A program made the position numbers and the translations under genes. From a phage: a stretch of 64,000 nt of DNA. Shown piece by piece: positions 6,532 to 64,000 of this stretch. The notes under the pieces were generated by a model. The model saw only the letters and a program-made list of their open reading frames with translations, did no database searches and was not told the DNA's origin. Numbering within the stretch: position 1 is the first letter of the stretch; each line of letters opens with the position of its first letter. Location: the sequence record PZ445446.1, one strand, 5' to 3'.

Positions 6532-6580
6532 TGTAAACTATCAGCACAGGGAGGTGCTGTTGAGCAAAGAGGAGACTTTT

Positions 6581-6865
6581 ATGGTAGTAGAGCCAACAAA
6601 AACATTTACATCCATGACCATTCCTGTTATTATGCAGGTGGAGTGTGTTCAGGTATCTCAAGTGTGGCCTGGCACCAAAATCCCAACAGGGCCTGATTTC
6701 TTTCAGGTTGGGAAAGTGTACAATGTCTGGAAGGCACCAGATTGTTACCCTTTCATTAAAGATGACCGTGGGATGCTGTGGTATCTTGGAAATGACTTGA
6801 CACTGCACCTTGGGAATGCTATTATTGCAGTATTCAGACTTAACAAGAAGGAGACCGATCAATGA
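6581..6865 (+). CDS. hypothetical protein
   Basis: Track ORF 6491..6865 trimmed to ATG 6581 with AAAGAGGAG RBS. Confidence 0.5.
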   Translation: MVVEPTKTFTSMTIPVIMQVECVQVSQVWPGTKIPTGPDFFQVGKVYNVWKAPDCYPFIKDDRGMLWYLGNDLTLHLGNAIIAVFRLNKKETDQ

Positions 6866-7687: not shown

Positions 7688-7738
7688 GCTTCACACAAAC
7701 AGAGCGTTGATTGTTTAACACTTAAGGAGACCGCTAAG

Positions 7739-7993
7739 ATGAAAATTACTCTGAAGCCAGAATGCGTTGAAAATGACCGAGCTTTTAAAGATTGCACAAT
7801 CGGTGCAATTTATGAAGCAGAGTTTTGTGAGAACCCTTTGGTAAAAGCCCTTCTGGAAGAAGGAGCTCCTCTATCACAGGAAGAGCTTGATGAGTTGGAA
7901 AACTCAGCACAGTGCCTTACCTTTAAAGATGATGAAGGAGACTCTGTCTGGTGCACTGTTAATGAAGTAGTTTTTGTAAAACCTGAACATTAA
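7739..7993 (+). CDS. hypothetical protein (paralog of 8057..8329)
   Basis: ORF track 84 aa; AAGGAG RBS; shares KP(E/D)..E.D.AF(K/R)DCT segment with next ORF. Confidence 0.55.
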   Translation: MKITLKPECVENDRAFKDCTIGAIYEAEFCENPLVKALLEEGAPLSQEELDELENSAQCLTFKDDEGDSVWCTVNEVVFVKPEH

Positions 7994-7996
7994 TGC

Positions 7997-8025
7997 TTGA
8001 CAACAGTCATAGGGCCTACTATAAT
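7997..8025 (+). promoter_or_regulatory. sigma70-like promoter with palindrome over -10
   Basis: TTGACA 7997-8002, 17-bp spacer, TATAAT 8020-8025; inverted repeat TAGGGCC..GGCCCTA flanks -10. Confidence 0.45.
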
Positions 8026-8056
8026 GGCCCTATCAAAACGGAAGGGGACCACAGCA

Positions 8057-8329
8057 ATGACCAAACAATATCAACGAATTAAAGCCAAGGTTAAGCCAGA
8101 CTATCTGGAGAAGGACTCTGCTTTTCGGGACTGCACAGCTGACAAAGTTTACACAGGGGCCGTCCTGTTGAACGATGAACTTGAAGTAGATATTCTGGGT
8201 AAAGAGGCCACTATTAAGGACGACCAAGGCGATTATGTTTGCTGCACCACACGTGAGCTAGAAATCTTAGAATACTTCGGTGAAATCTTCACCTCTCTTG
8301 ATGATTACTTAGATGATGAGGAAGCGTGA
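8057..8329 (+). CDS. hypothetical protein (paralog of 7739..7993)
   Basis: Track ORF 7997..8329 trimmed to ATG 8057 downstream of promoter. Confidence 0.5.
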   Translation: MTKQYQRIKAKVKPDYLEKDSAFRDCTADKVYTGAVLLNDELEVDILGKEATIKDDQGDYVCCTTRELEILEYFGEIFTSLDDYLDDEEA

Positions 8330-11455: not shown

Positions 11456-11523
11456 TTCATAGAACGGGAGGACGTGATGAACGAAGAAAACTGGGATGTA
11501 TAACTAACAGGAGGCCACTGCCC

Positions 11524-11721
11524 ATGATTTATCGAATCCGTGTAAGAGAAGATGCACCAGGCTGTTACTTTGACTGGCGTGGGTGGTGGTTTCTCCACCC
11601 GATGGATGGACTCACAGATAGAATGCTGGATGCTGCCCTTTATACAGATACCGACATAGAATATAATCTCTATCTGAAGGACGGTATAGATAACGGTCTA
11701 TTTGAAGCAATTCCTGTGTAA
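11524..11721 (+). CDS. hypothetical protein
   Basis: ORF track 65 aa; AGGAGG RBS. Confidence 0.5.
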   Translation: MIYRIRVREDAPGCYFDWRGWWFLHPMDGLTDRMLDAALYTDTDIEYNLYLKDGIDNGLFEAIPV

Positions 11722-11789: not shown

Positions 11790-12215
11790 ATGATCTATGA
11801 AATGCCAAAACTGATTCGTGACGATGCCCAAAACGCTCACACCATTATTATGGGCAAACGCATGGATATTATTTGTCATAAAGATTTCTGGGAAGGAAGT
11901 TACTTCACAGAGTATTTTGGTAAACTGGACAATGGTCTGCTGATCCAGTTCTACACCGATGCGGAAAACAACATTCACTGGGAGTTCGAAACTGAAGATA
12001 TCCATAAACTTTTCACCTTCCTCGGTATTAAGGTTGAGGCCAAGTTTGAAGAAGGTGAGTGCGACGATTGTGGATTCTATGAGGTAACAGATTTCTACCT
12101 TCCAAGTGGTAAAAATCTCTACTACGAAAGCCACTTCGGCAACTCAAATATGCCACAGGGTTGGGATGAGTTTTTGGAAATTGCAGAAGAGGAGCTGAAA
12201 TACCGTGATTATTGA
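11790..12215 (+). CDS. hypothetical protein
   Basis: ORF track 141 aa. Confidence 0.5.
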   Translation: MIYEMPKLIRDDAQNAHTIIMGKRMDIICHKDFWEGSYFTEYFGKLDNGLLIQFYTDAENNIHWEFETEDIHKLFTFLGIKVEAKFEEGECDDCGFYEVTDFYLPSGKNLYYESHFGNSNMPQGWDEFLEIAEEELKYRDY

Positions 12216-12663
12216 TACTGTAAAGGGAGATCTAATCTCCATTTTCAAGAAAGGGTCAGGCCACATGATCCACGGTTGTAACTGCTTTCACACAATGGGT
12301 GCAGGTATAGCGAAAGATATTGCCCGTGAGTTCCCTCAAGCACTGGCAGCCGACAAAGAGACTGCTTATGGTAATCTAGACAAGCTGGGTATGTTTTCTT
12401 GTTGGGAGCATTTTGCCAAGACCAGGGTCGTATATGGAATCAACCTGTATACCCAGTTCTACCCAGGGCCCAATGCTGAATACTTCTCAATCATGAAAGG
12501 TTTTGAGCGAGTCAACGAGGTATTCAAAGGTATGTCATTGCCGTTCTACATTCCTAAAATCGGATGCGGTATTGGAGGTCTAAAGTGGGAACATGTAGAA
12601 GATGTAATTAATCTTGCAACCACAGATATTGATGTGGTTGTAGTAGAGTACAAAAAGTGTTGA
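12205..12663 (+). CDS. macro domain protein (ADP-ribose binding/processing)
   Basis: HGCNCFHTMGAGIAK signature typical of macro domains; 152 aa. Confidence 0.7.
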   Translation: MIIDTVKGDLISIFKKGSGHMIHGCNCFHTMGAGIAKDIAREFPQALAADKETAYGNLDKLGMFSCWEHFAKTRVVYGINLYTQFYPGPNAEYFSIMKGFERVNEVFKGMSLPFYIPKIGCGIGGLKWEHVEDVINLATTDIDVVVVEYKKC

Positions 12664-16475: not shown

Positions 16476-16871
16476 ATGAATAAGAACGTACGCCGCATCA
16501 TGAACGAACTGGCAAACGATGAAAAAATTATTGACATGCATTTAGTCAACATTTGCCGCCGTTGTGTAACATATAACAACCGCGCCGCAAAAGCGCGTGA
16601 GATGAACGCAAAAGGCACCTTAAAGCCCTTTCAGGTGGTTGTAAAATCTATAACCAGTGCAGCAGGCCAGGCGCATGACCACAACAACGGGAGCACTAAT
16701 ATTGATCCGTCTTACGTAATGAAACGGATCCGGACTTGCAAGAATAAAGAGCAGGTGTATAATGTCATAGACTGGTTGGATTCTATGGGCGATGTGGTTT
16801 ACAATAGGTTTTCTGCAGCTATCGAGATCCAGCTTGACAGGTTGGACGGTAAAGTACTGAAAACTTACTAA
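16476..16871 (+). CDS. hypothetical protein
   Basis: Track ORF 16377..16871 trimmed to ATG 16476 after AAAGGAAAAAAGATC leader. Confidence 0.5.
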   Translation: MNKNVRRIMNELANDEKIIDMHLVNICRRCVTYNNRAAKAREMNAKGTLKPFQVVVKSITSAAGQAHDHNNGSTNIDPSYVMKRIRTCKNKEQVYNVIDWLDSMGDVVYNRFSAAIEIQLDRLDGKVLKTY

Positions 16872-16918
16872 GATTATTTTTAGATGGCCTTGACTTCAGG
16901 GCCATCAATAAAGTAAAC
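16872..16918 (+). promoter_or_regulatory. repeated palindromic TTGAC cassette, copy 1
   Basis: GATTATTTTTAGATGGCCTTGACTTCAGGGCCATCAATAAAGTAAAC directly after stop codon; ATGGCC/GGCCAT inverted repeat around TTGACT. Confidence 0.5.
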
Positions 16919-16951
16919 TAATCCCAGTTAAGCGAAAAAGGAGGCTTGAAG

Positions 16952-17071
16952 ATGAGCACTACACGCCAACACACAAAGGTAACGATTATCGTTTGCATCA
17001 TTGGTTACATCCTGGCGCAAATGTTGATGGGTAGCGCCAATGATTTCGCAAAATTTTTCTTAGACTTTTAA
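16952..17071 (+). CDS. small hydrophobic peptide (39 aa)
   Basis: Strong AAAAAGGAGG RBS 5 nt before ATG; hydrophobic core IIVCIIGYILAQMLM; read by eye. Confidence 0.45.
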   Translation: MSTTRQHTKVTIIVCIIGYILAQMLMGSANDFAKFFLDF

Positions 17072-17072
17072 T

Positions 17073-17100
17073 TGACAAGCTAACTTAAATCAGTATAATA
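17073..17100 (+). promoter_or_regulatory. sigma70 consensus-like promoter
   Basis: TTGACA 17073-17078, 15/16-bp spacer, TATAAT 17094-17099. Confidence 0.5.
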
Positions 17101-17151
17101 CTAAGCACATAAACGGGAAAACTTCCCAGAACACCAAAAGGAGAAAACATT

Positions 17152-17502
17152 ATGAATACTTCCATCACTATGACCGCCGAAGAAAAAGCCCTGCAGATCG
17201 CCGCTCTGAAAAAACAGATTGCAGAACTTGAAGACAAGATCGACAATTTTGAAATCGACGAAGACAAGTACGACGATAAATATGATGAATGGTTAGACGA
17301 GATCTACGGCGAAATTATGATCGGAAACATTTCTTTTCTTCCGTCGCGTATCCTCAAGGAGCTAGATCCTATCGCTTACCGCTGCGGATTTAGCGACTAC
17401 ATCGACAGCCTGGATATTGAGGACGATGAAGAATACCAGGAATTACAGACAGAGTTAGAAGAAGCAAAAGAAGAGCTTGCAGAACTGGAAGAAAACGAGT
17501 AA
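17152..17502 (+). CDS. hypothetical acidic coiled-coil protein
   Basis: ORF track 116 aa; AAAGGAGAAAACATTATG leader; very acidic. Confidence 0.55.
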   Translation: MNTSITMTAEEKALQIAALKKQIAELEDKIDNFEIDEDKYDDKYDEWLDEIYGEIMIGNISFLPSRILKELDPIAYRCGFSDYIDSLDIEDDEEYQELQTELEEAKEELAELEENE

Positions 17503-25584: not shown

Positions 25585-26189
25585 TCTGCTCTTCTCCTAC
25601 CATAAACGGCCCTACCTGGCAAGTGGAATAATTGACTAGCCATCAATCCCACATACTGTACAAATATACATGGAAAATAACTATTGCATAATTTTTCATT
25701 GTGTGGTAGCAAGTCCATTTTTACCCGTTTTCTCTCCCAAAAGTGCACGTAATGCCGCTATTGCACAAATTTTAACCTGATGCACATCTCCAATATCTTG
25801 TCAACAACTAAAAATCTTTATAAGTCATACACTTACACAGCATCGAAAGCGTGTTCTACGCGAAAAATCGAGTATAACTATAGCCGCCAGATCTCAGAAT
25901 TCACGTACGCACGCCATTCTATAGCCTGCAAAGTATTTATTCCAACCACAGAATAACGGAATAGTCAATACCTGCATAAAATAATTATTCGTGTAAACTG
26001 CATAACATAAATCAGCTCAGGTGTCAACATTTTTCGTAAACAGTCCGAAATTATCACGATGAGCTATCATAAACAGAGAAATATTTAGTCGTCTAATGTT
26101 TACTGTACATTACTATACTGACTGGAATCATTAGATGACTAAGAGAAAGATAAGAAATAATTAATAATGTAATTATTTTACCTGTAACA

Positions 26190-26500
26190 ATAAGGCAACT
26201 ATGCAAACGAATGGCATGGCGCGACGGAGTCGCGACATAATATAAAAGCAGTAACCATCACCCCCGTGATAGTTTGTCTGCAAACTATTAATCAGATCAT
26301 AGTTGCCTTGTATTTAGTTAATCATGACATAACAAGCAAGGCAACTATAGATCTTCTAATAGTTGCCCTGCTTTTATATTATGTCATAGGAACGCCCGAA
26401 GGGGTGACCTAGTCACCTGGTATAGCCAGCGAAAGATTATTAACTTGTCGATTGTTATCTTGTTAATTGTTTTCATGCAAACGAATGGCATGGCTTATCA
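26190..26500. repeat. cluster of inverted and direct repeats in non-coding DNA
   Basis: AAGGCAACTAT at 26192 and 26338 with inverted ATAGTTGCC(T/C)T at 26299 and 26359; 20-bp direct repeat ATGCAAACGAATGGCATGGC at 26201 and 26475. Confidence 0.6.
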
Positions 26501-28060
26501 TCTATGCGTGAACAGTGAGGCATGCAATAGTAACAATTGTTATTGTATCCAGTGTGTTGAGTATGCCCAGTGTGTCACTATTATGTCATATTATGTCACA
26601 GTATGTCAGACAAGTTTTCCTCCTCTTTGTCAAGTGCTGCATGAAAAATTTACAAGCTTGTATGGTAGCATTTTTGCGGCCCTGTTTACATTCAGTGTTG
26701 TATGTATAATCCTTGTTGTGTGGGCGTTTAGACGTCTGGACGGTCAGAAGTTTGCAGGTCAATATCTAATCTATTGGCTGCTAACTATATCCCCCACAAA
26801 TAATAAGAAATATAATTGTTATGTGCGTAAACAGTAACCCATGTTATCAATCCCTGTATGTATCGCCAGTGGTGCGCATAATGGGTATTATGTTAAATTG
26901 CCCGTAATGATAACAGTTCTCACAATGATAGGTATTCTCATTCATCCACACAAAATAGGTTGCAAATGTTGTGCCACTGTGTGAACGGCCTGGCCTATTA
27001 ATTTCTCTCACTGCCTCGATATTTGAGAATTGTTATAAGAATGAGAAGTATTCCCATTCCGTCCGCCTGGCAGCACTCCAGTAGCTACCGGCTCCTGACA
27101 GGGCAGCACTCCTGTAGGTCAGGTCAAAATCGTGGTAGAATTGGGCCTGTTCAGATATTTCTGACTGACTCTTCAGATCTGTGTGGGAAAAGCCAACCTC
27201 TCCGGAGGGGCAGGGGAGGTCAATTAAAAAATTTACGTGGTGTATGAAGCGCTCTTCAGGTAAGGCATGTATTATGGGATGAAACCCTCTTCAGGCAATG
27301 ATATTTGTGGGTGTGATATTTGCTGGAAAGCCAGATATGACGGGACTCCCGGCGGGGATGGGGTAGTACAGACAGGGAAAATATGGGGATGTAGTTGGGT
27401 AAATTGATCAGACAGGTAGAGTATGGAATATGTTACAAGTATGTTAAATAGGGAGGATGAATATCTGCAGGATTTGTGTGTAAAATCAAAGACTTAAGTG
27501 GTGTTGTGGTATTTTCTATAAATAATTCAAGTTTAATAGGTAATATTTGTCTCTATCCACTTTGTGTGGTAAACAGATTCAGATGAAATTGGTTTACAAG
27601 TGTATACATAATATACAAATTAAAGATACAAGAAACCCCCCTCCCCCTTCGGCTACCATTCACCTTTTCCTCTGACTGGTACTTAAACACTTATTCAGAC
27701 TCTTCAGGTTATCACCCATATATCATATGGCAGTGACTGGTGTCCTCCGGCCCCTCTTTCGTCACCCGTCCGCTTCGCCATGCTAATGCCATAGCCAATG
27801 GTTCGGTTGTTCACTCTGTTCACTCAGGTGTATCTCCATACCCCTTCAAACCGAAGAGAACAGAAAACCCGAATTACTCGGTAAAAGAAAAGAGAAGAAC
27901 TTAATTTTATCAGGATAGGCAAGAATGTCAAGGCATGACTGCTCACTAAACAAGCAAACAGTCATGTGTGGAAGGTAAGTGATTGTGGTGGTGGGAAATT
28001 TAGTTGAAAGATGTGTTATAGGTGCGCTTCCAGCACTTTGGCCGGGCAGCTAATTGTGTG

Positions 28061-33415: not shown

Positions 33416-33552
33416 TTAGAGGCCTCCTCAATTATTTGATATTAATAGCCGTAACCTAACACATTAACTACAACTGCGATTGCAAACATAATTTCAAAGC
33501 ATGCAATCTCTACATTTGGGACTAATTTCTTGATCACACCCATTGTAGCACC

Positions 33553-33870
33553 TCATTCTCTAAAGTCAATCTTTACTTTGCCTTTCCCCTTACCTTTCTT
33601 TCCACCGCATTTAGCCAGTTGACGTGCTGCAACATCTACCATACGGTCAGTTGCCTCGTAAGCATCACTGCCTTTAGCTTTGGCAATAACTTCTTTTCCA
33701 GAATTGTCAAAAATGAACGCCATAACTTCCTGGTGATCATTTTCAACTTTTACACTCACACGTGCATAGTTGGCAGAGGGATGCAAACGCTCCAGCTTAG
33801 ACATTTTGTGGGAAATGAAAGACACCATACCTTCAGTGATTTCTACGTTGCCAGTGATTTCAATTTGCAT
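33553..33870 (-). CDS. hpf: ribosome hibernation promoting factor / RaiA-like (HPF)
   Basis: MQIEITGNVEITEGM..KLER...V.VKVE...ARQLAK closely parallels E. coli HPF (MQLNITGNNVEITEAL...KLEQ...VLKVEK...ARQLTKHKDK); 105 aa. Confidence 0.8.
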   Translation of the reverse strand: MQIEITGNVEITEGMVSFISHKMSKLERLHPSANYARVSVKVENDHQEVMAFIFDNSGKEVIAKAKGSDAYEATDRMVDVAARQLAKCGGKKGKGKGKVKIDFRE

Positions 33871-38026: not shown

Positions 38027-38560
38027 CTACAAATGGTCGCTGAGGGTGTCAAGAAAATTATCCCGTTCTTTCTCAGAGTTTTCATGTGTGTAGCTGAAAA
38101 ACATATCGAGAATAACCTTATTGATATATTCCAGCTCCTCTGTGTTCAGATGCTTAGCAGGATCTACAATGACATCCCAAATATCATACAGACCACACTC
38201 ATGATACCCATAACGCCACTCAATTGTCAAGCTGAGCGGCAAATCTTTACCTTCACAAACAACCTTCCATCTACATATGTTGGTATCTGGTCGTACCTGT
38301 GCACGGTAAACCTGCACAAAATCCAATTTGAATTTGAGGTACTCGTCATACAATTTAAGCACAAAGCTCTCGATTTGTGGAGACACTTTTGCAGCAAACT
38401 GTGCGTATTTGTACTTGCACTGGATGATCTTTCTACGTTTTGCAGTTAAATTTTTTGCCGCCAGTTGTTCTTCAGTGTATCTCCACCTACGATCAACAAA
38501 CGCAACAGGGTCTTTGTCCCCATAGAGGTCTTCCCAGTTAATCAGAAGCATACCTGTCAC
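38027..38560 (-). CDS. hypothetical protein
   Basis: ORF track 177 aa. Confidence 0.55.
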   Translation of the reverse strand: MTGMLLINWEDLYGDKDPVAFVDRRWRYTEEQLAAKNLTAKRRKIIQCKYKYAQFAAKVSPQIESFVLKLYDEYLKFKLDFVQVYRAQVRPDTNICRWKVVCEGKDLPLSLTIEWRYGYHECGLYDIWDVIVDPAKHLNTEELEYINKVILDMFFSYTHENSEKERDNFLDTLSDHL

Positions 38561-47415: not shown

Positions 47416-49731
47416 TTATAGTGCACAGCTTTCGCAATACGGATCTTCAACTGAACTATCTGCAATCAAAGGATAGTTCTTTCTGGTTTCATCTTCAGCC
47501 TGTTTCTTGGCATGAAGTTCCTCTGCCAAGGAGTCACCAGCACCAACCCTAGAGTTTAAATAATACCATGTCTTCATCCCGAATTTAGTGGCACGGATAA
47601 GGTACCCTAACTGCTCCTTCATTGAAATTTTACCATCTTTCAACTTGGTGTAGTCTATGTATAAATCCGCGCTGATTGCCTGACCTGTGAATTTTTGAAT
47701 CACGGCATACATATCGATCATGTCGTTAGTATCAACGTCCCAAGCCGAGGTGTAATACTCTTTCAACTCATCATAGTCAGGAACGATAAACAGCACCTGC
47801 CCTTGTGGCGACTTTTTAAAGATAATGTGCTCACGGACAGGATAAACCCCGTTAGTGGTGTTTGTTGCCAGCGAAGAGCTTTCATTAGGCATATATGCTT
47901 CAAGAACGCTATTACGTAGCCCACCATTCTCAATGATTTCTTTACGTAACCCTTCCCAATCCTGTTTAAGAGAAGGATCTTTCACCACGCTATCGACCTC
48001 TTTGTTATAGGTGTCGATTGGTAACCAACCTTCTGGATATTTTGTTTTATGCATCCACTCGCAGACACCACGCTCTTTTGCCAACCGTAAACTTGCCTTA
48101 TGCAAGCTGTAGCTGTGAAGTTCTGCAAGATCGTGAACGAGCTGTTTACTTTCAGGAGACCCGTAAGTAACCTTGTGGCTGGCAATAAAATGTGCAACAT
48201 TGGTAAGGCCAACCCCGATGGATCTGCGTTTTTTAACTGTGCTTTCCATATTTTCATACGGATATGTCATGATTTCTATAACATTGTCAATCATAAGCAC
48301 CGTATAGTATGCAACATCCTCATACTCCTCTGGAGTAACCCTCCCAGCTACAAGAGATGACAGGAAGCACAATGCAACCTCTCCATCATCAGCATCGTGC
48401 TTGAAGATATTACGCATATCTGAATAGCCTTTTGTCGGGAGGGCTATTTCTGCACACAGGTTGCTTGAATAGATCACATCTTTAAAAGGTGTATGTCTAT
48501 TCATCTCATCTGTCCAGTATACGTACAGCCTTCCCACCTCAGTGCGCTGCGTGATCAGTTCAACAGCAAGATCTCTAGCTCGGATCCATGTTTTAGGAAT
48601 ACTGTCATCTTTAGCAATACGATCAACCTCTGCATCAAACTCCTCCATAGACATGGTGAAGATACCCTCATGCAGTTGAGGCGCGTGCTTATAAGAAACA
48701 AGCATCCAATCTAAATTCTTAGCCACACGGTTGATAAACGACCTATTAATACCGATGGAGTAGTCCATGGTGTTGATTCTTTTTGAAGCAACAGTCATAG
48801 GGTTTCTCAAACGGATTAGCTCATCAATCTGCGGGTCCAGTGCAAGGAATGATACTGTTGCAGAACCACCACGTGATTGTTGTCTGTTCTCCTTAACCCC
48901 AGCATCAATACCTCGATAATATGGAATCTTACCCATATGTTTAATAGTGTTACCACGAACACCATCGCCTGCAGATCTTGAGGATAAGTAGTAGCCGATA
49001 CCTGCTTGATTAACCGTCATTGTGTACGCAACTTCACGTGCCACACCAATAGATTTTGCTGTATCGTCAGCTTTTATTACACAACAAGATGCATACCCTG
49101 TCTTACCTGTGCGCAGCCCGTTTAAGTACGGTGTCGGGGCATTGATCTTTAAGTCGGACAGATAAGTGTATAATTTTACAACATCGTTGATACGACGTTC
49201 TTTCGGCATATTCTTCATGACAGCCATTGCTATCCCCATAAACATCATCTGGGGAGATTCAAACAAGGTGTCTTTAAGAGTATCCTTGATCCCATATTTG
49301 TCGCGAAACTGTTTAAGGACTGCATAGCCATAACCGAGATCTTTACTGTGGTCAATAACAGCGTCTAAAGTGTTTAGCTCGGTAAAGCTATAGCCCATAT
49401 CCTCCCAATACCCTTTCTCAACCATGGTATTGTAAAATGATGGTAAGGAAGGGATCTTTGTAAACCCTCCAAAAGCCTCTTTATAGATCTGACCAATAAG
49501 AACACGACCAGCCATACGGGAATGTGCTTCGTCTTTACGGCTAACACAAGAGTCTATAATAGCTTGGTTAACTTCTTTGGTTGTACATCCATCATACAAC
49601 CGCTTGTAGGCATCCAGTGCAATATGTGACCAATTGCCGTTACCGTCGTCACCGAAAATAGCTGCCTTATTTAAACGTTCTGGATCGAATGCCACTTCAC
49701 ATCCGTTGCTTTTAATTACCTTGGTGATCAA
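47416..49731 (-). CDS. nrdA: ribonucleotide reductase alpha subunit (class I)
   Basis: N-terminal ATP-cone-like; SSNLCAEI active-site motif; C-terminal CESCAL cysteine pair; 771 aa. Confidence 0.85.
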   Translation of the reverse strand: MITKVIKSNGCEVAFDPERLNKAAIFGDDGNGNWSHIALDAYKRLYDGCTTKEVNQAIIDSCVSRKDEAHSRMAGRVLIGQIYKEAFGGFTKIPSLPSFYNTMVEKGYWEDMGYSFTELNTLDAVIDHSKDLGYGYAVLKQFRDKYGIKDTLKDTLFESPQMMFMGIAMAVMKNMPKERRINDVVKLYTYLSDLKINAPTPYLNGLRTGKTGYASCCVIKADDTAKSIGVAREVAYTMTVNQAGIGYYLSSRSAGDGVRGNTIKHMGKIPYYRGIDAGVKENRQQSRGGSATVSFLALDPQIDELIRLRNPMTVASKRINTMDYSIGINRSFINRVAKNLDWMLVSYKHAPQLHEGIFTMSMEEFDAEVDRIAKDDSIPKTWIRARDLAVELITQRTEVGRLYVYWTDEMNRHTPFKDVIYSSNLCAEIALPTKGYSDMRNIFKHDADDGEVALCFLSSLVAGRVTPEEYEDVAYYTVLMIDNVIEIMTYPYENMESTVKKRRSIGVGLTNVAHFIASHKVTYGSPESKQLVHDLAELHSYSLHKASLRLAKERGVCEWMHKTKYPEGWLPIDTYNKEVDSVVKDPSLKQDWEGLRKEIIENGGLRNSVLEAYMPNESSSLATNTTNGVYPVREHIIFKKSPQGQVLFIVPDYDELKEYYTSAWDVDTNDMIDMYAVIQKFTGQAISADLYIDYTKLKDGKISMKEQLGYLIRATKFGMKTWYYLNSRVGAGDSLAEELHAKKQAEDETRKNYPLIADSSVEDPYCESCAL

Positions 49732-50036
49732 TTTGCTTCCTCCACTTCATTAACGTATTTATCAAGGCAGGTATCAGTATCTTGCTGGATAAAGGTATCC
49801 TCTTCTACAGAGATATTTATAATTTTACCTGTATACTCGTCATAATAAACATCATCATACATTTTAATATCGTTTGTCAGGCCGTTGAACCAAAGCCAAC
49901 CAACATACTCTGCCCGACTTGCAAAACCAAGATCCTTCCACTTGGAGTTATGACTCATCTTCACCACCTTAGCTTTCAATACCGAATAATTTTTCCAGGC
50001 GATGCAGATCTTCAAAATTGAAAGGTTCATCAACAA
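49728..50036 (-). CDS. hypothetical protein
   Basis: ORF track 102 aa; start uncertain. Confidence 0.4.
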   Translation of the reverse strand: MLMNLSILKICIAWKNYSVLKAKVVKMSHNSKWKDLGFASRAEYVGWLWFNGLTNDIKMYDDVYYDEYTGKIINISVEEDTFIQQDTDTCLDKYVNEVEEAN

Positions 50037-50469
50037 TATGAATATCTTCAGCCTTTTCAGATTGTTTTGTATACTTTCTTACATTAACACGATCCTCTAC
50101 AGGGATATCATACGGAAGATCTTGAACAAGCATTGCCTCACCGGGTGCTTTATCTACATCTAAAATATCTACACCGTTATACATTTGCGGGTATCTAAAG
50201 TCTGCACGCATGACACCAGCAAATACATCTGCCTTTCGATAATGTGTTGGCTTATTTTTGCATCGAACGTTTTTTCCACGAAGAACATCAATACTTTTTA
50301 AATCAAACCCTACGGCAAAGAGTGCAGCTCGGAGACCGTTTCGTGTGCGAACGTTAAACCCGGGAACGGTAGATAGGAAATCCAAAGTAACTGAAATAAA
50401 TGTCTTTTTAGGAATCATAACATTACTCATATCTGTCTCCATTTCTGGCTCACTAACAAAGTGAGCCAT
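49969..50469 (-). CDS. hypothetical protein
   Basis: ORF track 166 aa. Confidence 0.5.
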   Translation of the reverse strand: MAHFVSEPEMETDMSNVMIPKKTFISVTLDFLSTVPGFNVRTRNGLRAALFAVGFDLKSIDVLRGKNVRCKNKPTHYRKADVFAGVMRADFRYPQMYNGVDILDVDKAPGEAMLVQDLPYDIPVEDRVNVRKYTKQSEKAEDIHIVDEPFNFEDLHRLEKLFGIES

Positions 50470-50528
50470 TATTATAGATTATCTGATACTATTAGTCAAC
50501 ACAAAAGTTACCTATCGCTGTGATAGGA

Positions 50529-51512
50529 TTAACCTTTCACGAAGTGGTTATTAAGCAGTTGTCTGTGCTGAACCCACCCACAAAAGTTGGCAGACCAGAA
50601 TTTACCATCACGGTCTTGATGGGTTACACCTTCCTGCCAAGTACTGATGTCTTGTGTGATTTCACATGAAGACAGGTAGTAGTTTAAACGTTCCATTGCG
50701 TTATCGTGATCCATAGGTGTTGCCTGGTGCTCGTAAGGGCTTGCATGAATACGATCCCCACCAATCAATTTTTTAGCCACACTGTCTGCCTTTTCAAACG
50801 TGCTGTCAATATTTCGATAAGATACTTGTGCACAGCAACTAGCACTGATAGACAGAGCTTCTTTAGTATCGAGAATGCAGAGCTTTCCTTCTGTGTCACG
50901 CACAGCGTAGTTAAACTCTCCGTCCAAATAAACGTGCTCTACATATGGGGTGTGCCATTGACCCGGTTTAAGGATTTCAGGAGTGCTATTCCCAAGAGCC
51001 TCCCACATACAATTAGCCAACATCTGAATCGTAGGATCCGCATCGTGCCAGCAACGGAGGTGGAAAAAATTGTTCCACTCGGTGCTTGTTACAACTGTTT
51101 TCATGCGCTGAAAAGGCTCCACTAAGCGGTTACATACTTGCTTATGGTAACCAGCAAGTGCGAACTTCTCTGCATGCCAAGCGGCGTTTTTTGCAGCCTC
51201 TTTCCAAAACTCTTCAGGAGTTAGCTCCATGTCAGTGTACTCTACACGGATCTTTTGATCGTGTTCCCCACCATCCTCCATTCCTCGCTTATTTACACCG
51301 AAGCGAACTGGCATTGCCGGATTCTCCACAATCTGCTGCAGCATCTTGCCGACAGGCACTGCACGGGAAGACATGGCGTTTCGGCTGAATACTCGATGCG
51401 TCATAAGCTCTGAGTGAATAATTCGAGGATACTCTAGCTCAAAAGTGGTGATGCGCTTACCTTTCTCGGAAATGCTGTCAGCAATGATCTTTGCAGTGCA
51501 CAGTTTTAGCAT
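50529..51512 (-). CDS. thyX: putative flavin-dependent thymidylate synthase (ThyX-like)
   Basis: THRVFSRNAMSSR fits ThyX signature (R/T)HRxxSxxxxSxR; nucleotide-metabolism context. Confidence 0.5.
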   Translation of the reverse strand: MLKLCTAKIIADSISEKGKRITTFELEYPRIIHSELMTHRVFSRNAMSSRAVPVGKMLQQIVENPAMPVRFGVNKRGMEDGGEHDQKIRVEYTDMELTPEEFWKEAAKNAAWHAEKFALAGYHKQVCNRLVEPFQRMKTVVTSTEWNNFFHLRCWHDADPTIQMLANCMWEALGNSTPEILKPGQWHTPYVEHVYLDGEFNYAVRDTEGKLCILDTKEALSISASCCAQVSYRNIDSTFEKADSVAKKLIGGDRIHASPYEHQATPMDHDNAMERLNYYLSSCEITQDISTWQEGVTHQDRDGKFWSANFCGWVQHRQLLNNHFVKG

Positions 51513-51712
51513 TATTTAGCTCTCCTTGTTTTAATTTTGGAAATTTCGTCTGGGTTTATATTGGCCTTAAATGCAAGGTATCTGTTAAACATATCAGAGC
51601 ACATATCTTGGGTGATCCTGGAGGCATACACTAGCTTACCTCCTAGATCATACACCTCTAGCCAGTCACCATATCTGACTACAGGATCGCCACCTTTAGA
51701 ACATCTGACCAT
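51512..51712 (-). CDS. small hypothetical protein
   Basis: ORF track 66 aa. Confidence 0.45.
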   Translation of the reverse strand: MVRCSKGGDPVVRYGDWLEVYDLGGKLVYASRITQDMCSDMFNRYLAFKANINPDEISKIKTRRAK

Positions 51713-51713
51713 T

Positions 51714-52307
51714 TCAAATACCTTCTAAAAATTTTCCTATTTTATACCAGCTATTAGCGGTATAGTCAACACTGACCTTTAACTCCTCGAATTGCTCATA
51801 AGGCGTATCTTTTAGGATTTTAATAACTTCAGGTCGTGAAGCGAATTGGTTCAGGTATTCATGCCTGTCGTCAATTATAACATCTACAGCCACATTCCCT
51901 TTGAAATGTGTGGCGTAGAAGCCGTGGCCCTGGGTGTGGTCGTCCAGATCCATAAAATCACTGGTCCAACGCTTTAAGAACCTTGATTTAGATGCAAGGT
52001 GACCTTTCTTGCATACCGAGATAAATGCAAGCTTGTGACCACGAGCCACCAAATCTTTCATAACCTCAACAGCCCCATCTTCAGGCTTAAGAAAGTCGTA
52101 GAGGAATGGGTCACTCCAGAAATCAAAAGGCCCTATGATGTTTTCTTTGGGGCGATCAGGCCAATACTTTGACAGATCGTAATACATCAGTCCATTAGAA
52201 GGTTTAGCGACTGTCTTACTGGCTGGACCATACAAACGCTCCAACCACTCCCACCATGCTGTTCCTGAATCTACCAGTGTCAAATCTACATCAATTCCGA
52301 TTAACAT
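51714..52307 (-). CDS. HAD-superfamily hydrolase (putative nucleotidase)
   Basis: N-terminal IDVDLT (DxDxT) motif. Confidence 0.5.
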   Translation of the reverse strand: MLIGIDVDLTLVDSGTAWWEWLERLYGPASKTVAKPSNGLMYYDLSKYWPDRPKENIIGPFDFWSDPFLYDFLKPEDGAVEVMKDLVARGHKLAFISVCKKGHLASKSRFLKRWTSDFMDLDDHTQGHGFYATHFKGNVAVDVIIDDRHEYLNQFASRPEVIKILKDTPYEQFEELKVSVDYTANSWYKIGKFLEGI

Positions 52308-52918
52308 TCTTCTTGGGCCTCTTTAGCATCAATATACTTGCACACAATCTCCGATGCACACTCCCAAGGTGCACCTTCAGGGTTTACAACATCAAACTCA
52401 ACCCCTTTTATTCCGTTCTTTTCCAGACTTAGATAGGTTCTGGAATCATTTCCCCAGTCATATCCTACACGGTGAATACGGAACAACAACAGATCTCCAC
52501 CTGTGCTGTATGCGTACTCGCTAAGGCATGCCAGCTCCTCTTTGAATCCCCCATCGGAGTAAACAATAACCCCTTTACCTTCAGGGAAATCTTTCTTCAA
52601 AGATGCGACTGCGGCTTTACCGAAAGCATCTTCACCAAAGATAGGTTTAATCAGATTTTCACTACAATGGATCATCCATTCTCGCGGAGAAACATGCTTG
52701 CCGTCTATCATTAAGAAAGGGCAAGGCTCTTCTTTGTAGTGGCGGTCATAAAGTGCATTCCAGAGTTGAGGAGTTACACCAGCTGCCTTAATTGCCACAC
52801 TGAAGAGCATCTCCTTAACCTCACGGTGGTGTGAGTTAGGAATAGCTTCCAACAAGAGATCTGCAATGTGATCCTTACCACTGCTGGGTGGGGCGTTAAG
52901 AACAATAATATCCATCAA
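52301..52918 (-). CDS. putative deoxynucleoside monophosphate kinase (T4 gp1-like)
   Basis: N-terminal LNAPPSSGKDHIADL resembles T4 gp1 P-loop region. Confidence 0.4.
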   Translation of the reverse strand: MMDIIVLNAPPSSGKDHIADLLLEAIPNSHHREVKEMLFSVAIKAAGVTPQLWNALYDRHYKEEPCPFLMIDGKHVSPREWMIHCSENLIKPIFGEDAFGKAAVASLKKDFPEGKGVIVYSDGGFKEELACLSEYAYSTGGDLLLFRIHRVGYDWGNDSRTYLSLEKNGIKGVEFDVVNPEGAPWECASEIVCKYIDAKEAQEEC

Positions 52919-60211: not shown

Positions 60212-61495
60212 TCATTCCAGAACCTCCCAAGTATCTGGGTTAACATTTCGGACGCAGATACCGACAGGGAATTGGTAGTTGTTGTCTTCTGTCCTTGCTT
60301 GATATTTGAAGGTGACAAACTTGCCGATCATTTCCTGCATCCTGTCATAGCTACGCTCCTCGTGCGTGCCTTTCATCTTCATTTTAACAACAACACCCTC
60401 CTTGTCAACACAGATAAGAACACCTTCATCATTCTTATCTTTCTCAACGTCAATAACTTTCACCTCTGCGTCGTTGAACTTTTTCCATTTCAATGCTTCA
60501 GATGTTCGCTGACCATACTCATACTTACCACAGAAGTTACGCATAATGGTACCTTCATATCCTTCAGACATAAATATACCAACAGACTCTTCGCACCGAT
60601 CAACTGTATATGCAAGCTCTGCATCAACAACCTTAATATGATCAAGCATCAAAGAAGAAATAGCACCATTTGCCTCCATAAGATCCTTACAGCGCCCAGA
60701 CTCTGTTTCAGGATCCCACCACACCTTATCGCTAGGGATATCGAAAATATGATACTCTAAGTCGTAGCTGCAGTACCCTCCGTAACGCAAATCATCACGA
60801 ACAGGCTCAACATCAACAGGAATGTCCATCTTGTTGAAGTTTTTGTATGTTGCTAAACCTGCCTTAATCGCAGCCTGACGTCGTTTTTTATCTGCCTTGT
60901 AGTCTTTATCGATCTCGGCCTGAATTTCTTCCTGTGTGCGCCATCGTTTAGCAAGAGAAACTATTTTCTGCAGAGGCAGACCATGAATATAGAGCTCTCC
61001 GTCGAGCTGTTTAATCCCAGTGGTGAGGTGGAAAGAGCGAAGTTGCTCCAGAAGCTTTCCTTGAATAGGGTAGGACTTATTACCACGGGAAATAAATTTG
61101 GGCTCACCATTCTGGAAAACAACAAGTAGACGAAGGCCATCTAACTTACGCAAGATCCAGCAAGGTAATTTAAGAGCCTTGCCACGCTTCAGGTAGTCAT
61201 GCACCAGCATGGGTAAAAGGTCAACACCCTGCTCGCAATCTTCCATATTCTCAACATACCCCAGACGGACTTGTTTTTCCCACTTGCTAATAGCCTCAAG
61301 CTCGGCCTGTTGCTCAGCGGTAGTCTCGTTGGTACGACCTACGTTCTTAGGCGTGCATACCGTCTCTTTGTATTGCAGTTTACCATCAAGCTTGCCAAAC
61401 TCTACGATAACCTTATCACCATCCGTGAATACTTTCCACTGTTGGTAGCTGCCATCTTTGTTCAGTGCGTACAGTGTTGTTTTGATCTGATGCAT
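60212..61495 (-). CDS. ATP-dependent DNA ligase
   Basis: Nucleotidyltransferase motif I RKLDGLR, motif III LDGELY, motif IV EGTIMR, motif V LKWKK. Confidence 0.65.
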   Translation of the reverse strand: MHQIKTTLYALNKDGSYQQWKVFTDGDKVIVEFGKLDGKLQYKETVCTPKNVGRTNETTAEQQAELEAISKWEKQVRLGYVENMEDCEQGVDLLPMLVHDYLKRGKALKLPCWILRKLDGLRLLVVFQNGEPKFISRGNKSYPIQGKLLEQLRSFHLTTGIKQLDGELYIHGLPLQKIVSLAKRWRTQEEIQAEIDKDYKADKKRRQAAIKAGLATYKNFNKMDIPVDVEPVRDDLRYGGYCSYDLEYHIFDIPSDKVWWDPETESGRCKDLMEANGAISSLMLDHIKVVDAELAYTVDRCEESVGIFMSEGYEGTIMRNFCGKYEYGQRTSEALKWKKFNDAEVKVIDVEKDKNDEGVLICVDKEGVVVKMKMKGTHEERSYDRMQEMIGKFVTFKYQARTEDNNYQFPVGICVRNVNPDTWEVLE

Positions 61496-61764
61496 TACTC
61501 GGCCTCTTCCTTAAAAATGTTAAACATCTCTTCTTTACTCATTACCAACCAGTCTCCCATAAAGTCAACTAACCAATCTCCCTGGTACAAGACCAGGTTA
61601 CCAAACGGCTCGACAAGCTCACACATGCGACGAAGATCTCTGGTACGAACAGGTGACGATGTAAACACACCTGTATCAATCCACCGTTGCAGATCAGATA
61701 CTGATGAAGAGCTTCCGTCAAACTGGTGTGCTTCTACAGGTTTAGCAAGATTAAATAACGGCAC
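61495..61764 (-). CDS. hypothetical protein
   Basis: ORF track 89 aa; overlaps ligase start. Confidence 0.45.
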   Translation of the reverse strand: MPLFNLAKPVEAHQFDGSSSSVSDLQRWIDTGVFTSSPVRTRDLRRMCELVEPFGNLVLYQGDWLVDFMGDWLVMSKEEMFNIFKEEAE

Positions 61765-62089
61765 TGCAGTCCTCCTTATCTAATAGGTCTTTTATCGGGT
61801 AAACAAGCAGGTGTGGATCGTAATAATTTATAGTTTTATTCTGCCACACTATGAACTTAATTACAACTAAATTTACCACATCTTTATCTCCATGTAGTCC
61901 AACACACAGATTTGTCCATATTTTGTGGTTGAATACTTTGCTGTCGATGTAGATCTTAGTGTCAAACTTATCCTCTATCCTGCCTATGAGTTTAACCAAC
62001 TCTTTCATCTGATCCCCAAACACAGCATCGTTTTCAAGATCTCTAGAGTGCTTGTACATAACTATCTTCCTCACTTGCATACTTTCCAC
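61751..62089 (-). CDS. hypothetical protein
   Basis: ORF track 112 aa. Confidence 0.5.
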   Translation of the reverse strand: MESMQVRKIVMYKHSRDLENDAVFGDQMKELVKLIGRIEDKFDTKIYIDSKVFNHKIWTNLCVGLHGDKDVVNLVVIKFIVWQNKTINYYDPHLLVYPIKDLLDKEDCSAVI

Positions 62090-62122
62090 AACAAGTAAAG
62101 CCGGGTAATCCCGGCTATGTTG

Positions 62123-62836
62123 TTAAATATACTCTGTTACATCCTTGAAGCTCGAAGGCTTCATGATCTTACCTTTGCTGTCAAGGAATATGATAACTTT
62201 ATTACCGTTGTAGAATTCTTCCTTAGCAACAAAACCTTCATATCGACCATCAAAGCGTCGCTCAAGATCTTTAATCTCCAACTCGATGAGTTGTTCAGCA
62301 GGCATATCTGCACTGGCACCGTGTGAATACTGTAGATGGTTGACCCGTGCAAACTTGCTGTCATTCGATTTGAGAACCTTACGCATCATCCCGCACACAT
62401 CGCCGCGAAGCTGGAACAGCAAAGCTGTTGACAACTCTGCTAAGCGGTAAGCGGACGCTTTTTGCTTAGAGGTGTTTTTCGCAGCGATCAGTGTATCATA
62501 GAACTCACCGATCTTGAACTTAAGACCCTGTGGATTATCAAACAGGTTTGACCACTTTTCGTGATTATCATTAACAAGATAAGCGGCATAACTTGTGACA
62601 ACGTGAAGATCGCAGGCCTCTTTTAGCAGGTGATCTCCGCCATCACCTTTCTCCAGCTCTTCCAAAACTTCATTGAACTCTTCCTCAATGAAGCTAAGCT
62701 GTAATTCGAATGGTGTGTATGATTTTTTCACTTTAGCTGCCACACGGTTCCAGTTTTCCACCCAGTTGGCAGACCAAAGGTAGTTTTCAGGTTGGGACAG
62801 TTTTTCCAGGTTGTCAATTAATTTGGTATTCAGCAT
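62123..62836 (-). CDS. hypothetical protein with MazG-like NTP pyrophosphohydrolase-type N-terminal motif
   Basis: IEEEFNEVLEELEKGD..D acidic E-x-x-E cluster resembling MazG-like metal site; rest unassigned. Confidence 0.35.
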   Translation of the reverse strand: MLNTKLIDNLEKLSQPENYLWSANWVENWNRVAAKVKKSYTPFELQLSFIEEEFNEVLEELEKGDGGDHLLKEACDLHVVTSYAAYLVNDNHEKWSNLFDNPQGLKFKIGEFYDTLIAAKNTSKQKASAYRLAELSTALLFQLRGDVCGMMRKVLKSNDSKFARVNHLQYSHGASADMPAEQLIELEIKDLERRFDGRYEGFVAKEEFYNGNKVIIFLDSKGKIMKPSSFKDVTEYI

Positions 62837-62849
62837 TAAAGGTCTCCTT

Positions 62850-63611
62850 TTAAAGTTCCATAAAGTTTTCTACGGTCTCAATGAATGTTTTATCAGAGAA
62901 AGCATCAACCGCCCCGTTAAACCAAACTGGGATGCCGCGATCCTCATATTGGTAAATATCACTACGTGAAATACCATTCTCCCCTAGCTGCTGTGAGTCG
63001 TATTTGTTAACGATCAGCAGTTTGGTTCCCTTATTGCAGGCAGGGAATAGCTCCCAGTTAAAATTGATAACTGTGTTGGAACACCCTACAAGGATAACCA
63101 TATCATTACTCGTAAGAGAAGTCAACAGGTCATACATGTCTGTATACTTCGGAGCTACTTCTCCGAAGAACACCACATTAGGTTTAACCCAGGTATACTT
63201 TCCTGCATCTACCTCAGAGTATCCAATGTCCTTAATGACGTCACTTCCTTCATCGTCCTCATAGACTATTTCTGGCAAATACCCGTGAACATGTAAAATA
63301 TCTTCATGTTTTACACCAGCACGCTCCAGCAAATCATCTACATTGGTGGTAAGGTTGATCACACGACCAGACCAGCGGGAATACCACTCAGCGATCCGAA
63401 GATGTGCAAGGTTAGGCTCAACACCGCCTAGAGCTACACGACGTGCATTGTAAAAGTCATGCACCTTGTAGTAGTTCTTGGCAAAGGTGTGGATGTTGCA
63501 CACCTCATCGATGCTGAAATTCTCCCACATTGCAGTGCTACCAGATCGGAAAGTGGGAATACCAGATTCAGCGCTCAAACCAGCACCGGAGATAATAATC
63601 AGTCGTCGCAT
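62850..63611 (-). CDS. Sir2-family (sirtuin-like) protein
   Basis: GAGLSAESGIPTFR NAD-binding signature, TTNVDDL, catalytic-like HVHG; no obvious Zn-binding Cys tetrad. Confidence 0.75.
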   Translation of the reverse strand: MRRLIIISGAGLSAESGIPTFRSGSTAMWENFSIDEVCNIHTFAKNYYKVHDFYNARRVALGGVEPNLAHLRIAEWYSRWSGRVINLTTNVDDLLERAGVKHEDILHVHGYLPEIVYEDDEGSDVIKDIGYSEVDAGKYTWVKPNVVFFGEVAPKYTDMYDLLTSLTSNDMVILVGCSNTVINFNWELFPACNKGTKLLIVNKYDSQQLGENGISRSDIYQYEDRGIPVWFNGAVDAFSDKTFIETVENFMEL

Positions 63612-63619
63612 AAGTGTCC

Positions 63620-63970
63620 TCAGTAGATGTTTTGTTTAATCTCTATTCCAAACTTTTTAAACGAGTCAGCTGCAAGCATGAATTTACGAGCCGCTGATGG
63701 GTTAGAAGTATGCACGAAAATCTTCACGTTGTCAACTACAGGGGGCTTACCAAATACAAATTTTTCCTCCAACATAGATAGGCAATCGTACCCTTCGAAC
63801 ACCTCTCCAAGGTCGTTGTCCATGTGCCACTCAGAAACGCGTCTGTAGAGCTTTCCCCTATCGTTAATAAAATCTATAAACTCGGAGGAATTCTTTAGCC
63901 AAATAGCGTCTGGGAGCCCATAATTTGACGGATCTCTCAAGTCATCCAGCCACACAATCAACTTCTTCAT
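63620..63970 (-). CDS. hypothetical protein
   Basis: ORF track 116 aa. Confidence 0.5.
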   Translation of the reverse strand: MKKLIVWLDDLRDPSNYGLPDAIWLKNSSEFIDFINDRGKLYRRVSEWHMDNDLGEVFEGYDCLSMLEEKFVFGKPPVVDNVKIFVHTSNPSAARKFMLAADSFKKFGIEIKQNIY

Positions 63971-64000
63971 TGCATATAGTTCTCGTTGTGGAAATAGTAA

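Follow-up and report, generated by a model that had tools for sequence, protein, structure and literature searches.

A Sir2-family gene and its MazG-like neighbour in an rV5-like phage as the possible distal half of a described RNA-repair cassette

The locus considered here, a gene for a Sir2-family protein with an adjacent gene for a MazG-like protein at positions 62123 to 63611 of a 64,000-nucleotide phage sequence (record PZ445446.1; this whole stretch is called the window below), belongs to a neighbourhood that has been described before. Iyer, Burroughs, Anantharaman and Aravind (2022, Viruses 14:1977, PMC9503650, section 3.7.3) defined it as their neighbourhood type 2, for which Escherichia phage V5 and Proteus phage Mydo served as prototypes, and listed as its members a sirtuin, a T4-like tRNA ligase, cREC, a nucleotide kinase, a pyrophosphatase of the MazG superfamily and a calcineurin-like phosphoesterase. 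They proposed that the sirtuin acts like KptA/Tpt1, removing RNA 2'-phosphates with NAD+, and that cREC and the phosphoesterases either open the cyclic phosphate or act on the product, ADP-ribose-cyclic-phosphate; most viral sirtuins are members of this RNA-repair sirtuin clade (PMC9503650). The locus in the window is the same locus, with nothing essential different, and since more than 100 near-identical annotated genomes exist and the neighbourhood was described in 2022, it is a known system and not a discovery. To that description we add a hairpin that bounds a four-gene unit, the loss of the Zn-ribbon cysteines of the sirtuin with its Y-x-x-R pair kept, the dimeric dUTPases as nearest fold of the MazG-like protein, the confinement of the direct Sir2-MazG adjacency to Vequintavirus, and a phAPEC8-like block without Sir2. 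We read the two genes as the distal half of a cassette for healing and sealing RNA, in which a sirtuin uses NAD+; the 2'-phosphotransferase chemistry of that sirtuin we infer, and we give this reading a probability of about 0.4.

The last 2.6 kb of the window are 99.8% identical to Escherichia phage JeffSchatz (Bas55, Vequintavirus, rV5-like) and 90-99.7% identical to 119 further rV5-like records, and positions 63900-64000 correspond to positions 11501-11601 of the JeffSchatz locus with no mismatch. Compared with genomes of the rV5 group, the window shows 97-99.8% identity. The region is coded on the minus strand, in keeping with a GC skew that is negative throughout it. Four co-oriented genes, separated by -4, 8 and 13 nt, are followed by a hairpin:

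63967..64000, minus strand: 3' end (last 10 codons and stop) of the gene for a T4 Rnl1-type RNA ligase, the first gene of the operon, whose remainder lies past the window end
63620..63970, minus strand: cREC, a receiver-like domain of 116 amino acids (Pfam cREC_REC, 1.3e-14), with a 4-nt overlap with the ligase stop codon
62850..63611, minus strand: Sir2-family protein of 253 amino acids with an ATG start, from a phage-specific CobB-like clade
62123..62836, minus strand: predicted MazG-like all-alpha nucleoside triphosphate (NTP) pyrophosphohydrolase of 237 amino acids with an ATG start and a small C-terminal beta-hairpin, the last gene of the four-gene unit
62099..62116, minus strand: GC-rich stem-loop (AGCCGGG-AUUA-CCCGGCU) with a U-rich tail, from a terminator scan, after a 33-nt gap from the MazG-like stop codon

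Both open reading frames (ORFs) thus lie where a preliminary description of the window had put them, and the 253-amino-acid ORF is already labelled Sir2 or NAD-dependent deacetylase in more than 100 GenBank records. Divergent from the unit, just past the window end, are genes for a P-loop polynucleotide-kinase-like protein and a calcineurin-like phosphoesterase as well as six tRNA genes, and all five partners of the sirtuin listed in 2022 are found within 2.5 kb. All six genes of the cassette have domain calls and intact catalytic motifs. The full ligase protein (305 amino acids) matches Pfam RNA_lig_T4_1 at 5.7e-15 and carries K-K-N-G as motif I; cREC (PF20274) scores 55.1 bits against a cut-off of 27, matches PHROG 1479 at 7.5e-35, and keeps the acidic residues of the receiver-like site in LDD (D9-D10) and in MDND at 50-53 (D51/D53). 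The stem-loop folds at -17.6 kcal/mol (z = -4.5), a stability reached by 0/200 shuffled sequences, and is likely a terminator or stabilising hairpin closing the four-gene unit. Relatives that differ at 10-37% of synonymous sites show purifying selection on three of the genes, strong for Sir2 and the MazG-like gene, with ratios of nonsynonymous to synonymous differences (pN/pS) of 0.09-0.13 for Sir2, 0.12-0.17 for cREC and 0.07 for the MazG-like gene. Where the preliminary description saw a block of DNA metabolism, the surroundings are instead those of an operon for healing and sealing RNA ends, of which the pair forms the distal half, with genes for a polynucleotide kinase and a metallophosphoesterase and a group of tRNA genes beside it. 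Its view that function is not determinable from sequence was too pessimistic, a specific prediction for the same neighbourhood having been published in 2022.

What the cassette would do can be outlined after Iyer et al. (2022). Host anticodon nucleases or toxin RNases would cut tRNA or other RNA to leave 2',3'-cyclic-phosphate and 5'-OH ends; the kinase would phosphorylate the 5' end, cREC (predicted from its domain to process cyclic phosphates) or the metallophosphoesterase would open or remove the cyclic phosphate, and Rnl1 would seal the nick. The sirtuin would remove the RNA 2'-phosphate with NAD+ in a reaction like that of KptA/Tpt1 but with another fold as its scaffold, and cREC, possibly with a distant TARG1/Poa1p-like macro protein, would linearise and dephosphorylate the ADP-ribose-cyclic-phosphate by-product. 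The MazG-like protein, a predicted pyrophosphohydrolase that would be co-transcribed with the cassette, might clear nucleotide by-products or, about as likely, serve as a phage dUTP/dNTP pyrophosphatase. With the T4 Pnkp-Rnl1 and Clostridium thermocellum Pnkp/Hen1 systems the window phage shares an Rnl1-type ligase and a P-loop 5'-kinase near tRNA genes, and, as regards the 3' end, it resembles C. thermocellum Pnkp in having a phosphoesterase of the calcineurin type. The T4 and C. thermocellum systems are without cREC, sirtuin and MazG-like proteins, whereas the window phage adds these and has its kinase, phosphatase and ligase as separate small proteins.

The evidence for a sirtuin comes from family profiles, structure and residues alike. 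The 253-amino-acid protein scores 95.3 bits for Pfam SIR2 (PF02146), where the cut-off is 24, over profile positions 1-178 of 180 (E 5.6e-27), and matches PHROG 2162 at 1.8e-108; a profile of 32 of its relatives run against solved structures has E. coli CobB as its best match (2.8e-28). In Foldseek its AlphaFold model (predicted local distance difference test, pLDDT, 89.2) matches CobB at 1e-18 with a template modelling score (TM) of 0.75-0.83, and CobB, archaeal Sir2 and SIRT5 together at E values of 1e-18 to 1e-14 with TM 0.7-0.84. The sirtuin motifs that had been read from the letters are indeed there and the family call is far beyond chance: residues 9-22 are GAGLSAESGIPTFR, and the catalytic H109-G110 is aligned with the HG of CobB. 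Also present are the NAD+-binding motifs G9-A-G-L-S13, I18-P-T-F-R22, N90 and D92, and the class III Y-x-x-R pair, F53-Y54-N-A-R57-R58 being aligned with FYNARR of CobB. This pair binds acidic acyl groups (succinyl and malonyl carboxylates) in SIRT5 and CobB. Among the 32 relatives G9-A-G, S16-G17, F21-R22, Y54, R57, N90, D92 and H109-G110 are invariant, as is T89, which replaces the Q of TQNxD throughout the clade. The four-cysteine Zn ribbon is missing: there is no cysteine between H109 and K143 (cysteines occur only at 38, 177 and 192), and 0/32 clade members have those that CobB carries in the aligned segment, where the model retains three beta-strands. The protein has a complete NAD+ pocket and the catalytic histidine, and descends from CobB/SIRT5-like (class III) sirtuins.

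Its relations to the known sirtuins and to KptA/Tpt1 can be set out accordingly. With CobB and SIRT5 it shares the Rossmann and small-domain fold, GAGxS, FR, the N and D of TQNxD, HG, the FGE loop and Y-x-x-R, but it is only about 27% identical to them, has a phage-specific C-terminal extension in addition to the missing Zn cysteines and the T for Q, and stands in a context of RNA repair, not metabolism. It was rejected as a CobB orthologue at the equivalog level, since the NCBIfam scores reach about half of the cut-offs or less (best 122 bits against 243, others 55-102 bits against 221-395). KptA/Tpt1, which removes RNA 2'-phosphates with NAD+ in a heal-and-seal pathway with ligase, kinase and cyclic phosphodiesterase, is the proposed functional analogue; its fold is of the ADP-ribosyltransferase (ART) type, as against the sirtuin Rossmann fold of the phage protein, for which Pfam matches SIR2 only and no KptA/Tpt1 family, so that without any sequence relationship the likeness is at most one of function. 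The defence Sir2 NADases (ThsA, DSR1/2, SIR2-HerA) and the SirTM-macro pairs share with it the NAD+-using Sir2 fold and a setting of phage-host conflict, but the phage protein is without sensor or partner domains, is encoded by a lytic phage, and has no macro gene adjacent to it. A defence-type Sir2 was likewise rejected, the PADLOC models giving only PDC-S65 (E 0.011, 13 bits, 34 residues).

The MazG-like acidic motif noticed earlier in the 237-amino-acid ORF also stands, as EEEFNEVLEE at 51-60 and EACD at 73-76, with a metal site of the form EExxE...ExxD (E52-E-F-N-E56 and E73-A-C-D76), and places the protein in the MazG superfamily; domain searches on the two proteins thus gave a sirtuin and an NTP-pyrophosphatase fold. 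E53, E56, D76, N158, K161, K223 and K226 show no variation among 60 relatives, the most distant of which are 24% identical. By itself the protein scores 13.7 bits for Pfam PRA-PH, below the cut-off of 21.3, and matches PHROG 671 ("nucleotide pyrophosphohydrolase") at 1e-21; among 60 aligned members of the family PRA-PH is matched in 42 and MazG in 11 (E <= 0.01). A search of the PDB with a shallow profile found nothing, and a deeper profile only marginal HisE matches (E 0.011). The model (pLDDT 73) has a helical core and a highly conserved C-terminal beta-hairpin bearing a KGKIMKP motif, and its top structural matches, at 9-14% identity, are dimeric dUTPases (staphylococcal phage Dut 5myd, Campylobacter jejuni 1w2y and Leishmania 2yay). 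The extra beta-hairpin sets it apart from these and from the MazG/HisE superfamily. The modelled structure confirms an all-alpha NTP-pyrophosphohydrolase fold with an intact metal site, nearest to the dimeric-dUTPase branch. The family is small, with 164 cluster representatives, mostly of 200-260 amino acids, among 1.84 billion proteins in an exhaustive profile search, and tblastn finds it among sequenced phages only in rV5-related myoviruses (324 records); locus searches with single distant members gave no viral loci (one query) or only further rV5-related phages. In MN850593, MN850626, MN850576, MN850627 and UniProt A0A7H0XDZ2 the ORF is mislabelled "putative Sir2-like protein", a label apparently copied from the neighbouring Sir2 gene.

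To examine the linkage of the cassette genes across phages, we searched 60 viral loci with members of the Sir2 clade (42-94% identity) with profiles of each of these genes. Rnl1 and the kinase lie near Sir2 in 11/60 loci, and up to 15/60 also have a phosphoesterase or DNA ligase. These 11-15 loci are from rV5-, Mydo- and Seuna-like phages of 140-153 kb, and their gene order, unlike that of rV5, is phosphoesterase, Rnl1, (cREC), kinase, Sir2, DNA ligase, small ORF, MazG-like. The Sir2 of T5 (T5.102) is 58% identical to that of the window phage, and three genes downstream of it T5.105 encodes a phosphatase of the HAD_SAK_2 family, "Swiss-army-knife RNA repair" (Pfam, 4e-20). A 607-kb jumbo-phage contig has an RNA_lig_T4_1 ligase (Rnl1-type, 2.7e-28) two genes upstream of a 42%-identical Sir2. 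The sirtuin clade thus occurs with RNA end-processing genes in three arrangements (rV5/Mydo-like phages, T5 and a jumbo phage), which supports a role in RNA repair.

Some further observations were made at these loci. In RefSeq, T5.105 (NC_005859; 8143-8649 of the retrieved locus) is mislabelled "Sir2 (NAD-dependent deacetylase)", the true Sir2 of T5 being T5.102; the two genes downstream of T5.105 encode DUF7415 proteins. An arginase-family gene (locus 5818-6723) lies between the Rnl1 ligase and Sir2 in the 607-kb contig, and a nucleoside 2-deoxyribosyltransferase-like gene (1.2e-33; locus 7713-8198) comes after Sir2 in a 279-kb jumbo-phage contig.

The hairpin divides the Rnl1-cREC-Sir2-MazG-like unit from small ORFs and a DNA ligase gene downstream:

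61751..62089, minus strand: small conserved protein of 112 amino acids, PHROG 7684 (1.1e-49), which stays in the block in related phages and is present at 10/60 Sir2 loci
61495..61764, minus strand: small conserved protein of 89 amino acids, PHROG 14585 (3.8e-63), present at 11/60 Sir2 loci
60212..61495, minus strand: ATP-dependent DNA ligase of 427 amino acids (Pfam DNA_ligase_A_M 1.1e-8 and OB_2 1.3e-7; PHROG 114, 1e-82)

The DNA ligase is the most persistent neighbour of the MazG-like gene outside Vequintavirus, where the latter is always placed directly after it; in Mydo-like phages the PHROG 14585 gene follows the DNA ligase directly. Direct adjacency of Sir2 and the MazG-like gene is therefore a Vequintavirus feature, and of the functional pairing of the two proposed earlier, what holds is the adjacency in that group; in other lineages the genes are not adjacent. 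In every lineage the MazG-like gene nevertheless shares a block with cREC, the phosphoesterase and usually Rnl1 and the kinase. The seeming absence of Rnl1 and cREC beside the MazG-like gene of Phapecoctavirus was rejected, as iterated profiles find both, annotated as hypothetical.

A separate macro-domain gene, to which the preliminary description had linked the pair, does exist in the window:

12205..12663, plus strand: macro-domain protein of 152 amino acids, TARG1/OARD1/Poa1p-like (Pfam Macro 26 bits against a cut-off of 22; PHROG 335, 6e-60)

Its matches in the PDB are the macrodomain 5e3b (4e-6), the ADP-ribose-1''-phosphate phosphatase 6lfu (7e-5) and OARD1 (5e-4), and it is annotated only as "hypothetical" or "phosphatase". 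It could process ADP-ribose-1''-phosphate or reverse the ADP-ribosylation of nucleic acids or proteins, for example against DarT. Its type, which includes ADP-ribose-1''-phosphate phosphatases, fits the clearing of a Tpt1-type by-product, yet it is only a compatible observation, because the gene lies about 50 kb from Sir2, on the opposite strand and in another transcription unit, among early small genes. A "putative glycosidase" at 38027-38560 was also considered as a macro-domain candidate and rejected, having no Pfam match.

Several observations weigh against the reading of the locus as an NAD+-using RNA-repair cassette. Our literature searches for experiments on the sirtuins of T5, rV5 and other phages, on KptA-like sirtuins or on cREC returned only comparative genomics, the NARP3 paper having no bearing on them. 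About 40 of the 60 loci are T5-like, with Sir2 there lacking Rnl1, cREC or MazG-like genes beside it, and the block of phAPEC8-like phages (cREC, phosphoesterase, Rnl1, kinase, DNA ligase, MazG-like) is without Sir2, whose gene is found on the same contig at a distance of about 28 kb; moreover, synteny is only partly independent evidence, because most of the linked phages are related by descent. A kinase, a metallophosphoesterase and Rnl1 need no further member to make up a whole heal-and-seal pathway, one of the T4 or C. thermocellum Pnkp type, and this pathway yields 3'-OH/2'-OH ends and does not require a 2'-phosphate to be removed. Finally, all features of a protein deacylase except the Zn site are kept in Sir2, and the proteins nearest to it in sequence and fold are genuine lysine deacylases. 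It could accordingly be a phage copy of CobB, working as a conventional NAD+-dependent lysine deacylase and perhaps removing succinyl groups, that remodels host or phage acylation (for instance by freeing the catalytic lysines of ligases or host enzymes), its RNA-repair neighbours being incidental or regulatory. The matches to E. coli CobB, archaeal Sir2 and SIRT5, the "NAD-dependent protein deacylase" models that are its best NCBIfam matches, the invariance of the catalytic His, the N and D of TQNxD, the FGE loop (VVFFGE) and the Y-x-x-R pair, and the annotation in every GenBank record all agree with this. Such a role is plausible, but we hold it to be less likely than not, given the clade-wide loss of the four Zn-ribbon cysteines and the change of Q to T in TQNxD, scores far under the CobB equivalog cut-offs, a host that already supplies CobB, and the linkage of the clade to RNA end-processing enzymes in three gene arrangements. 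A role of these genes in the conflict with host immunity would bring in the macro protein as well: Sir2, MazG and macro proteins would manipulate NAD+/ADP-ribose pools or nucleotide second messengers against NAD-depleting or cyclic-nucleotide immunity, or Sir2 would itself be an NADase or an ADP-ribosyltransferase for host takeover. Sir2 NADases do act in several defence systems, MazG-family enzymes can degrade signalling nucleotides (reviewed in PMC9503650), and a macro domain is encoded in the genome. But an enzyme that consumes NAD+ cannot restore it, no NAD-salvage (NARP-type) gene is annotated in the genome regions covered, the only PADLOC match to a defence Sir2 model is the negligible one at E 0.011, no sensor or effector partner is found, the macro gene is 50 kb off on the other strand, and the operon partners are RNA-repair enzymes. 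We consider this role very improbable. The preliminary description was thus partly right, in its domain calls and its NAD/ADP-ribose theme, whereas its suggestion that NAD-depleting defences are countered finds no support; the RNA-repair operon context points to NAD+-using repair of RNA or tRNA.

For the MazG-like protein the choice is of another kind, as it could act independently of Sir2 as a phage dUTP/dCTP (dNTP-sanitising) pyrophosphatase that supplies dUMP to thymidylate synthase and keeps uracil out of DNA, as T4 gp56 and the dimeric dUTPases do, the adjacency to Sir2 then being a Vequintavirus rearrangement. A nucleotide-metabolism block on the minus strand at 49731-52918 comprises thymidylate synthase (50529-51512), a deoxynucleoside monophosphate (dNMP) kinase (52301-52918) and class I and class III ribonucleotide reductases, while no dUTPase is recognisable in the window, in the further annotated parts covered, all outside the structural half of the genome, or in the paper on the rV5 genome. 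A mimivirus structural relative of the MazG-like protein is fused to thymidine kinase. Together with the direct adjacency limited to Vequintavirus, these observations make a role as dUTP/dNTP pyrophosphatase a serious rival to one coupled to Sir2, and we hold it, tentatively, to be quite possible. The identity to dUTPases of 9-14% is, on the other hand, too low to map uracil-specific residues; Pfam scans of the protein and of 60 family members found no dUTPase family, dUTPase_2 included, and the sequence matches are to PRA-PH and MazG. In the window phage, moreover, the gene is inside the Rnl1-cREC-Sir2 unit, ahead of the hairpin, and its block with cREC, the phosphoesterase and usually Rnl1 and the kinase is kept in all lineages.

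A bolder idea goes further, and we regard it as doubtful. The phage protein may be the first sirtuin with a nucleic-acid substrate, its Y54/R57 pocket having been reused for an RNA 2'- or terminal phosphate that attacks NAD+; on a sirtuin scaffold without Zn it would then act as a 2'-phosphotransferase in the manner of Tpt1 or as an ADP-ribosyltransferase for RNA, with cREC, macro and MazG-like proteins dismantling the by-product, and rV5- and T5-like phages would have a complete NAD+-dependent tRNA-repair pathway. The core of this idea is published as a prediction, and the reuse of the pocket and the by-product chain are added here. Should the published prediction be right, sirtuins would gain a new class of substrate, RNA phosphates, and phages as common as rV5 and T5 would carry an NAD+-dependent branch of tRNA repair against host anticodon nucleases. 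This would account for a gene that has been labelled "deacetylase" for two decades, and would tie phage RNA repair to the availability of NAD+, which many defence systems target.

Neither an Rfam scan nor a tRNA scan of the whole window gave a match. The six tRNA genes mentioned above (Arg-AGA, Tyr, Lys, Thr, Ile and Pro) are at positions 16513-17325 of the JeffSchatz locus, about 4 kb past the window end, where they adjoin the genes for the kinase and the phosphoesterase. Anticodon nucleases are known to attack the tRNAs for Lys, Tyr and Arg, so that tRNA replacement and tRNA repair may be housed together here. A promoter consensus scan of the window found 20 sites against 14.1 +/- 4.7 in shuffled sequences, which is not above expectation, and was not used.

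Elsewhere in the window, about 2.4 kb at 25600-28000 are without an annotated coding sequence, exactly at the switch of coding strand and GC skew, with a repeat-rich core at 26185-26600. The region holds direct and inverted copies of the motif ATAGTTGCC(T/C)TG, a perfect 20-nt direct repeat (copies at 26201 and 26475) and an equally perfect 18-nt inverted repeat (26234-26251 / 26368-26385). It has no match to Rfam families or tRNAs and is a candidate replication origin or regulatory region. A further gene directed at translation, in the early region at about 33535-33852 on the minus strand, encodes a homologue of ribosome hibernation factors (RaiA/HPF-like) according to the JeffSchatz and APECc02 annotations.

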